Positions 56,588 to 61,996 of a DNA stretch of 64,000 nucleotides are shown here, one piece after another. Origin of the DNA: a virus. The notes below the pieces were generated by a model, which was not told where the DNA came from, searched no databases, and was given only the letters and a program-made list of their open reading frames with translations. Location: the IMG/VR virus record IMGVR_UViG_3300027816_000055. One strand, written 5' to 3'. Numbering within the stretch: position 1 is the stretch's first letter; the number at the start of each line of letters is the position of its first letter. The translations under genes were made by a program, and so were the position numbers.

Positions 56588-56677
56588 TGGCGGAAGTTGA
56601 GGGAATTGCACCCCCACCGGTTTTACCCGGCACTGTTTAGCAAACAGTTCTGACAACCTAATATTCAGCTAACTTCC
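56588..56677 (-). tRNA. trnS: Non-canonical tRNA-Ser(GCT)
   Basis: ACTGT-TTGCTAA-ACAGT; A8; T loop TGCAATT; CCA. Confidence 0.85.
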
Positions 56678-56770: not shown

Positions 56771-56856
56771 TGGTAGGTGTGGTAGGATTCGAACCTACAA
56801 GGACTTCTCGTTTTAAGCAAGATGTTTCTTCCAATTTCACTTTCGTCCACACACCC
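56771..56856 (-). tRNA. trnL: tRNA-Leu(TAA), atypical (short V region, long 8-9 linker)
   Basis: TCTTG-CTTAAAA-CGAGA; GGGTGTG/CACACCT-A-CCA. Confidence 0.85.
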
Positions 56857-56870
56857 ATTATTAAATTAAC

Positions 56871-56922
56871 AAGATACATTTGTTTATTTTTGCTAAATAA
56901 TTTTTGTTGCTGTATGTATCTT
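56871..56922 (-). repeat. Stem+ACAGCAA element copy A
   Basis: AAGATACAT-ACAGCAA...ATGTATCTT; flank identical to copy B. Confidence 0.75.
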
Positions 56923-56927
56923 AAAAT

Positions 56928-57012
56928 TGGTAGTCATGACCCGATTCGAACGTGCAAAGGATATGATATTTTGAGTATCACGGTTGTTCCAGTTTCCCTT
57001 ATCCACATGACC
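56928..57012 (-). tRNA. trnL: tRNA-Leu(CAA), atypical (short V region, long 8-9 linker)
   Basis: TGATA-CTCAAAA-TATCA; GGTCATG/CATGACT-A-CCA. Confidence 0.75.
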
Positions 57013-57035
57013 ATTATCCACATGACCATTATCCA
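56999..57035 (+). repeat. 15-bp tandem repeat (about 2.5 copies) containing TTATCCACA DnaA-box matches
   Basis: TTATCCACATGACCA x2 followed by TTATCCA. Confidence 0.85.
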
Positions 57036-57038
57036 AAT

Positions 57039-57206
57039 TTACGTTTTTAGTACTTTGAGTACGAGTTTTGCTTTTTTTAATTTTTCTTGAGTTGCCGCAA
57101 ACTCTTCGGCACCAACATTACGTTTGAAGTTTGCACTATTCAATTTTCTTTCTAGAAACTTGATATAAAGTTCTTCGTGTGCAATACGTTCTTTATTTGT
57201 TTTCAT
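57039..57206 (-). CDS. Small basic protein (55 aa, not in the ORF track)
   Basis: MKTNKERIAHEELYIKFLERKLNS... Confidence 0.6.
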   Translation of the reverse strand: MKTNKERIAHEELYIKFLERKLNSANFKRNVGAEEFAATQEKLKKAKLVLKVLKT

Positions 57207-58073: not shown

Positions 58074-58157
58074 TGGTAGGCATGATAGGACTTGCACCTA
58101 CACGGATTTCTCCATTGATTTCTAAGACCAACGCGGCTTCTTTTACGCCACATGCCC
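58074..58157 (-). tRNA. trnL: Non-canonical tRNA-Leu(TAG)
   Basis: TTGGT-CTTAGAA-ATCAA; T loop TGCAAGT; D loop lacks GG. Confidence 0.88.
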
Positions 58158-58171
58158 ATTATTAAATTAAC

Positions 58172-58279
58172 AAGATACAACAATTTACAGTTTTGCTTCT
58201 GACCTGCATTTTTTTCATGGTCCGCAGACAAGACGATTCATTTCCTATGATAATTTATATTTGTTGCTGTGTGTATCTT
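58172..58279 (-). repeat. Stem+ACAGCAA element copy B
   Basis: AAGATACA-C-ACAGCAA...TGTATCTT. Confidence 0.75.
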
Positions 58280-58288
58280 AAAAATTAC

Positions 58289-58404
58289 GAGATGTGTTTT
58301 TATAATTTGAGTTTCAAGCTCAATGCCTTACCATTAGGCGAATTTTCCACACGGAAAATATTGGATTTGAACCAATAATTTATTTGTATTGCTGCGCACA
58401 TCTC
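58289..58404 (-). ncRNA. Circularly permuted tRNA-Ser(TGA)
   Basis: Order is T arm, closed 7-bp acceptor, D arm, anticodon arm, all inside a GAGATGTG/CACATCTC helix. Confidence 0.75.
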
Positions 58405-61921: not shown

Positions 61922-61996
61922 TGGTGCGCCCAGCGAGATTCGAACTCGCAAATATAGTTTTAGAGACCACTGTTTTAACCGTTAAACTATGGACGC
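61922..61996 (-). tRNA. Amber suppressor tRNA (anticodon CTA)
   Basis: GTGGT-CTCTAAA-ACTAT; GCGTCCA/TGGGCGC-A-CCA; TTCGAAT. Confidence 0.92.

Follow-up and report, generated by a model that had tools for sequence, protein, structure and literature searches.

Two leucine tRNA genes in phage DNA with a covariation-supported fifth helix between the acceptor-to-D connector and the variable region

The question raised by this locus is whether two tRNA-Leu genes lying close together in phage DNA, both without a long variable arm, carry an extra helix around the D and anticodon arms, and whether such RNAs could work as leucine tRNAs. The window, meaning the whole stretch of 64,000 nucleotides from virus record IMGVR_UViG_3300027816_000055 that was analysed, was AT-rich (about 27-37% GC) and contained phage-type genes (thymidylate synthase, glycosyltransferase, and PHROG families of unknown function), with a tRNA array and a tmRNA on the minus strand from about 52.6 kb to the window end. 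The sequence-only reading had placed the two tRNA-Leu genes at 56771-57012, and both were present there on the minus strand. The genes were parsed by hand and checked with a script, and are referred to as c1, a tRNA-Leu(UAA) of 86 nt (56771-56856), and c2, a tRNA-Leu(CAA) of 85 nt (56928-57012).

In both genes the acceptor stem has 7 bp, with G1-U72, and is accompanied by A73 and a CCA that the gene itself encodes. The anticodon arm consists of 5 bp and a loop of 7 nt that carries U33 and A37; the T stem, also of 5 bp, closes the loop UUCGAAU, and UGG was found in the D loop of each gene. The D arm was reduced to two Watson-Crick pairs and a G.A (G10-C25, N11-N24, G12.A23) below an 11-nt loop with G18G19; in c1 it lies at 56824-56840, with U11-A24 as the middle pair and the loop AAAUUGGAAGA. 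The D-region motif GAAAYUGGAA, reported earlier as common to the two genes, was recovered in each. The anticodon arm of c1 covers 56806-56822 (anticodon UAA, 56813-56815) and that of c2 covers 56964-56980 (anticodon CAA, 56971-56973). As the sequence-only reading had it, the long variable arm was missing and the linker after position 7 was enlarged: the variable region, which forms no hairpin in either gene, measured only 7 nt (c1) and 8 nt (c2), while the connector from acceptor to D arm measured 9 nt in c1 (UGGACGAAA) and 7 nt in c2 (UGGAUAA), against 2 nt in ordinary tRNAs. An ordinary class II tRNA-Leu(UAG) in the same array (58074-58157, minus strand), with a variable arm made of a 3-bp stem and a GAAA loop, served as the comparison gene.

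Four bases of the connector (GGAC or GGAU) can pair with GUCC or AUCC of the variable region, and this pairing is called helix X. In c1 the 5' strand GGAC (56845-56848, minus strand) stands directly 3' of U8 (56849) and is followed by the junction GAAA (56841-56844), and the 3' strand GUCC (56801-56804, minus strand) has A44 (56805) before it and UU (56799-56800) after it, so that the complementarity claimed earlier for the UAA gene is present. In c2 the 5' strand GGAU (57001-57004, minus strand) follows U8 (57005) and precedes the junction AA (56999-57000), and the 3' strand AUCC (56959-56962, minus strand) stands between U44 (56963) and UUU (56956-56958). Here the sequence-only reading had drawn five pairs (GGAUA/UAUCC); four of them stood, while the fifth, A with U44, was given up, as only 34 of 48 relatives have it and it competes with 26-44. 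Position 44 acts in the relatives as the normal partner of position 26, and G.U, A.C, G.A, A-U, and C-G all occur there. The earlier statement that the pairing is kept with different sequences is thus right for GGAC/GUCC versus GGAU/AUCC, with a helix length of 4 bp and not 5.

When the standard arms were enforced, the best fold of both genes included helix X, which added -3.0 kcal/mol in c1 and -2.4 kcal/mol in c2, a small computed gain. In unconstrained minimum-free-energy folds, c1 kept helix X with a misfolded anticodon arm, and c2 folded differently (z = +0.6).

Relatives were sought with sequence patterns and with a covariance model. A first pattern, derived from c1 and c2, returned true relatives in viral contigs amid many chance matches. 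The second pattern consisted of the D-loop motif and the T loop only, with the helix left out. It returned 14 stretches from viral contigs, all 14 with family members, and 47 from metagenomes, 36 of them with family members; in one genome per prokaryote species (185,579 species) it gave 6 matches and no family member. A looser D-loop pattern added 13 further viral stretches. Because the pattern that fetched most homologues omitted the helix, the helix sequences were not selected by the search. In total, the family comprised 86 genes (64 distinct sequences) on 65 stretches of phage and metagenome DNA, the window included. Covariance model R1, built from 14 sequences, scored the 86 family genes at 64.6-107.9 bits (c1 93.0 bits, c2 102.7 bits) and the ordinary tRNAs of the same DNA at 53.3 bits or less, a clean separation. 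A structural descriptor (acceptor stem, 4-bp connector-variable pairing, anticodon arm, and T arm) was run over 1.3 Mb of DNA containing roughly 320 ordinary tRNA matches, and returned family members only, all with Leu anticodons and none of any other isotype; the pattern seen in c1 and c2 is therefore more than chance.

BLAST against 50,697 GenBank phage records, with the 2.2-kb array, c1, c2, and two other members as queries, gave no family member; the matches were T-arm fragments, ordinary tRNAs, and type I tRNA-Leu. Relatives sought through the neighbouring Hsp20-like protein gave none in viral contigs. The family has so far been found only in phage and metagenome DNA, and it appears to be confined to uncultured phages.

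Some other tRNA-like genes also departed from the usual form. Unusually long (90-93 nt) tRNA-Ile(UAU) calls adjoin fifth-helix Leu genes on three stretches (L129:1293-1385, L150:1432-1523, and L169:2374-2463), and these may carry an insertion or an extra arm. Another stretch (L140:918-1255) contained three tRNA-Leu-like genes of 81-82 nt, in which one nucleotide separates the acceptor from a GGAC/GUCC D stem and the 11-nt variable region shows no obvious stem.

Covariation in homologues, the check that had been proposed with the original observation, gave the main evidence on whether helix X exists. Across the 64 distinct sequences, the helix was standard-paired in 254 of 255 cells. The first pair was GC in 63 sequences and GU in 1; the second was GC in 56, GU in 6, and UA in 2; the third was AU in 61, CG in 2, and AC in 1; and the fourth was UA in 50, CG in 11, and UG in 2. 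Observed variants were GGAU/AUCC, GGAC/GUCC, GGAU/AUUC, GGAU/GUCC, GGCC/GGUC, GGCC/GGCC, GUAU/AUAC, and GGAU/AUCU, and the exceptions were one A.C mismatch (GGAU/ACCC) and one gapped sequence. In shuffles, none of 500 reached the observed pairing or the observed covariation score, and 2 of 500 reached the count of both-side pair changes. When the 3' strand was slid by 1-3 columns, pairing dropped to 33-68% and the both-side changes were all gone. RNAalifold, run on the alignment with no structure supplied, predicted the same helix together with the four usual arms.

All other stems covaried as well. The acceptor stem was paired in 99.6% of cells, with all seven pairs covarying in the family, as did all five pairs of the anticodon stem; D-arm pair 11-24 also covaried across the family (GC 39, CG 23, UA 2). 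The acceptor/T branch was 7/5 in all family members.

It could be argued that the two segments are conserved for other reasons and that the genes encode short-variable-loop tRNAs with floppy long connectors and no added helix. Variation in the helix is indeed modest, as the same GGAU/AUCC occurs in 42 of the 64 sequences, about two thirds of the members, and only 4 bp with a small computed energy gain are involved. Set against this are changes on both sides at three of the four pairs and nine G.U intermediates with a single mismatch in 255 cells, the shuffles that never reached the observed values for pairing or covariation score, and a direct comparison at one locus, where closely related phages carry GGAC/GUCC (c1 of the window) and GGAU/AUCC (relative L021), both strands having changed together. 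A tree made from the remaining alignment columns requires at least 16 changes of helix state, a count that overstates independent events since the alignment is 85 nt long, and some both-side changes may have been inherited or moved between genes by recombination. A tRNA family that has no helix at this place is considered highly improbable, and the covariation and the RNAalifold prediction support, at the level of secondary structure, the earlier proposal that the D and anticodon arms are enclosed by an added helix.

Standard gene finders mostly passed over these genes. ARAGORN made no call for c1 and none for c2; the Rfam tRNA model gave a partial match of 25.1 bits to c1, under the gathering cut-off of 29 bits, and no match to c2 up to E = 1. 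Over the family, ARAGORN overlapped 7 of the 86 genes, with the wrong length every time, and 2 of 20 relatives passed the cut-off of the Rfam model (RF00005). About nine in ten fifth-helix genes are thus missed by ARAGORN and Rfam, an annotation gap that makes the leucine tRNA counts of large phages too low and so biases work on the codon use and tRNA complement of phages. The failure of gene finders on c1 and c2 is also what decaying tRNA pseudogenes would give, but 64 distinct sequences on 65 stretches keep every stem by compensatory change and keep all universal tRNA residues, and decay is almost certainly not the explanation.

Several other features of the array were recorded. The phage tmRNA (53764-54147, minus strand; Rfam 124.7 bits) encodes a 19-residue tag ending in AVAA and is also present in the close relatives L021 and L091. 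A class II tRNA-Ser(GCU) with G73 (56591-56677, minus strand) was missed by ARAGORN and scored 35.5 bits with Rfam. A tRNA-like sequence at 58279-58348 (minus strand; Rfam 32 bits) has good D and anticodon arms (UGA) and no recognisable T arm; it is a tRNA that has either degenerated or been truncated. At 61922-61996 (minus strand) lies an amber-suppressor tRNA (anticodon CUA), which ARAGORN labels 'Pyl'. Recoding of TAG was considered in view of this tRNA; none of the 24 long window ORFs ends in TAG, and reading TAG as sense merged no ORFs, so that no sign of recoding was found in the window. Just upstream of c2 (57013-57042, minus strand), the first 15 nt of the gene (acceptor 5' strand and connector) are tandemly duplicated in about 2.5 copies, a duplication missing from L021 and L091. 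The leaders before c1 (56857-56927, minus strand) and before the class II tRNA-Leu(UAG) (58158-58285, minus strand) have in common an inverted repeat, AAGAUACA ... UGUAUCUU, that brackets a variable loop; its 3' flank is identical in both leaders. The repeat is also conserved in L021 and L091 and may serve in processing or as a promoter.

For the suitability of the fifth-helix genes as leucine tRNAs, residues, anticodons, and codon use were compared. Anticodons in the 64 distinct sequences were UAA (31), CAA (21), UAG (11), and GAG (1), and no others. All 64 sequences had A73, U8, U33, and a purine (A or G) at position 37, and 58 of the 64 encoded CCA. Among the leucine codons of 24 window ORFs, UUA (43.6%) and UUG (30.5%) jointly made up 74%. 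Within each phage cluster, fifth-helix genes, short-loop Leu genes of 77-78 nt, and class II Leu genes occupied different anticodon slots. In the window, UAA and CAA are fifth-helix and UAG is class II; in the close relative L091 all three are fifth-helix, and its fifth-helix Leu(UAG) has an acceptor stem identical to that of the window class II Leu(UAG) whose slot it takes. In L064, UAA is fifth-helix, CAA and GAG are short-loop, and UAG is class II.

The identity elements listed for E. coli leucyl-tRNA synthetase (LeuRS) are A73, A14, A15-U48, G18G19-U55C56, and U54-A58 (PMC6614811), and all of them have counterparts in the fifth-helix genes. A bacterial LeuRS can charge a tRNA-Leu that has no long arm, as in Streptomyces coelicolor (PMC6614811). 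A phage-encoded LeuRS was considered as a co-evolved partner and set aside, as no LeuRS gene was found in the two incomplete viral records searched; the simplest assumption is then that the host enzyme charges these tRNAs.

The genes might instead encode tRNA-shaped RNAs that act outside translation, for example as decoys for host tRNA-cutting defence enzymes or as regulators, and the core does depart from every tRNA known to work on the bacterial ribosome. However, the anticodon loops are intact (U33 and purine 37), the anticodons are Leu only and always occur with A73, and the genes fill anticodon slots left empty by the ordinary Leu tRNAs of the same clusters and match the dominant Leu codons of the phage. 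A role outside translation seems very unlikely on these grounds, and a role in translation is likely, judged from conservation. The sequences suggest that c1 and c2 are most likely working leucine tRNAs charged by the host LeuRS.

The preferred reading in full, which is regarded as probable, is that c1 and c2, from an uncultured AT-rich phage, form a working tRNA-Leu pair built on a re-wired core with a fifth helix. The two genes would be transcribed within the phage tRNA array and charged by host leucyl-tRNA synthetase, and c1 would read UUA and UUG and c2 would read UUG, the commonest leucine codons of the phage. In the re-wired core of the family, the long variable arm is missing, the D stem is down to two Watson-Crick pairs, and the connector after U8 and variable positions 45-48, normally unpaired between the limbs of the L, are lengthened and form a mutual 4-bp helix.

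In a normal tRNA, nucleotides 8-9 descend along the D stem and nucleotides 44-48 return upward, antiparallel to them, and both strands make base triples with the stem; the layers U8.A14 and 15.48 are at the top and 26.44 is at the bottom. The fifth-helix genes retain U8, AAA (13-15), position 44, and a U that follows the helix. By analogy with canonical tRNA geometry, helix X would lie beside the short D stem, with the 26-44 layer on one side and the U8.A14 and A15.U48 layers on the other, and would brace the core in place of the base triples; both the L shape and the contacts of G18G19 with the T loop at the elbow would thereby be kept. This three-dimensional placement is inferred from that geometry.

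The same secondary structure could adopt another three-dimensional arrangement, in which helix X stacks end-to-end on the anticodon stem and replaces the D stem, and the D hairpin becomes a side branch reaching the T loop. With 4 bp from helix X, one layer from 26-44, and 5 bp from the anticodon stem, the limb would reach 10 layers, as many as the D and anticodon stems give in a normal tRNA. Under the arm constraints, c2 folds with helix X directly on a G26-U44 pair, and the 3' strand of the helix begins immediately after position 44 in all members, with 0-1 nt between helix X and the anticodon stem on the 3' strand. In such a stack, however, the top of helix X would meet the acceptor/T helix at the 7/49 junction and not at the elbow, the anticodon-to-CCA distance would shorten unless other parts compensate, and the conserved U8, AAA (14-15), U tail (48), and G18G19 suggest that the canonical core layers are kept. 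The stacked arrangement is accordingly thought unlikely, and placement of helix X beside the D stem is preferred.

Two candidate origins of the helix were considered. One is the variable-arm hairpin, as the class II arm reads GGA-GAAA-UCC and the c1 connector reads GGAC-GAAA and pairs with GUCC; the other is a duplication of a D-loop segment.

If the genes work, they would be a natural and widespread exception in bacterial viruses, in which the tRNA core is held by a Watson-Crick connector helix and not by base triples. They would then serve as a natural test case for how far LeuRS, EF-Tu, and the ribosome depend on the tRNA core, and would supply a ready non-standard scaffold for orthogonal tRNA engineering. 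A more speculative version, which is doubtful, holds that the fifth-helix fold works on bacterial ribosomes with host LeuRS and was evolved by phages as a counter-defence. Were it true, the tRNAs, having neither the long arm nor the standard core, would be spared by host enzymes whose recognition or cleavage is directed at class II tRNAs, and UUA/UUG-rich phage genes could still be translated while host tRNA-Leu is under attack.

When compared with the canonical cloverleaf (RF00005), the fifth-helix genes showed the same acceptor/CCA end, anticodon arm, and T arm with a G18G19 D loop; the 2-nt connector with an unpaired or self-paired variable region was not found, nor did c1 or c2 reach the 29-bit level of that model. 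A full-text literature search found no published description of a connector-to-variable helix.

E-loop tRNAs and allo-tRNAs, which come from metagenomes, are natural departures from the cloverleaf that standard tools miss (Mukai et al. 2017, PMC5389517; PMC7609411). E-loop tRNAs resemble the present genes in that additional nucleotides separate their acceptor stem from their D stem (PMC5389517; PMC7609411), and the portions of the text available on them mention no pairing between this loop and the variable region. In PMC5389517, the acceptor/T branch of allo- and E-loop tRNAs is 8/4 or 9/3, their variable arms are mostly long, and their identities are other than Leu; the E-loop tRNA that was assayed (U73, anticodon GCU) was not charged. 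The 8/4 and 9/3 branches of that group contrast with the 7/5 branch of the fifth-helix family.

Type I tRNA-Leu is also a leucine tRNA without the long variable arm. Examples are tRNA-Leu(CAA) of Streptomyces coelicolor (PMC6614811) and animal mitochondrial tRNA-Leu, and it has been annotated in phages, as in Cronobacter phage LPCS28 (tRNA-Leu(taa), OM638103.1, 21225-21301) and Streptomyces phage Genie2. It has a four-arm cloverleaf with a 2-nt connector and an unpaired variable loop of 4-5 nt, and c1 and c2 differ from this ordinary form in both connectors; on model R1 it scored 46-54 bits, against 64.6-108 bits for the fifth-helix family. In related phages, tRNA-Leu genes of 77-78 nt (CAA, GAG, UAA, and CAG) with an ordinary cloverleaf and a 5-nt variable loop were observed beside fifth-helix genes (L064:8057-8134, L019:9592-9669, L020:6613-6690, and many others).

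Class II tRNA-Leu resembles the fifth-helix genes in its Leu anticodons, A73, 7/5 branch, Leu-type D loop with G18G19, and length of 84-88 nt, and in its place in phage tRNA arrays; a Leu anticodon together with A73 was found in all 64 distinct sequences. It differs in its 2-nt 8-9 connector, its 3-bp D stem, and its variable-arm hairpin. The fifth-helix type has variable regions of 7-8 nt, short of the 10 nt or more with its own stem-loop that marks the long arm; it forms no hairpin, and the variable region pairs instead with the lengthened 8-9 connector, with junctions at both ends of the helix. By the text descriptions of these systems, the fifth-helix genes are a structural variant of tRNA-Leu distinct from class II, type I, and allo-/E-loop tRNAs.
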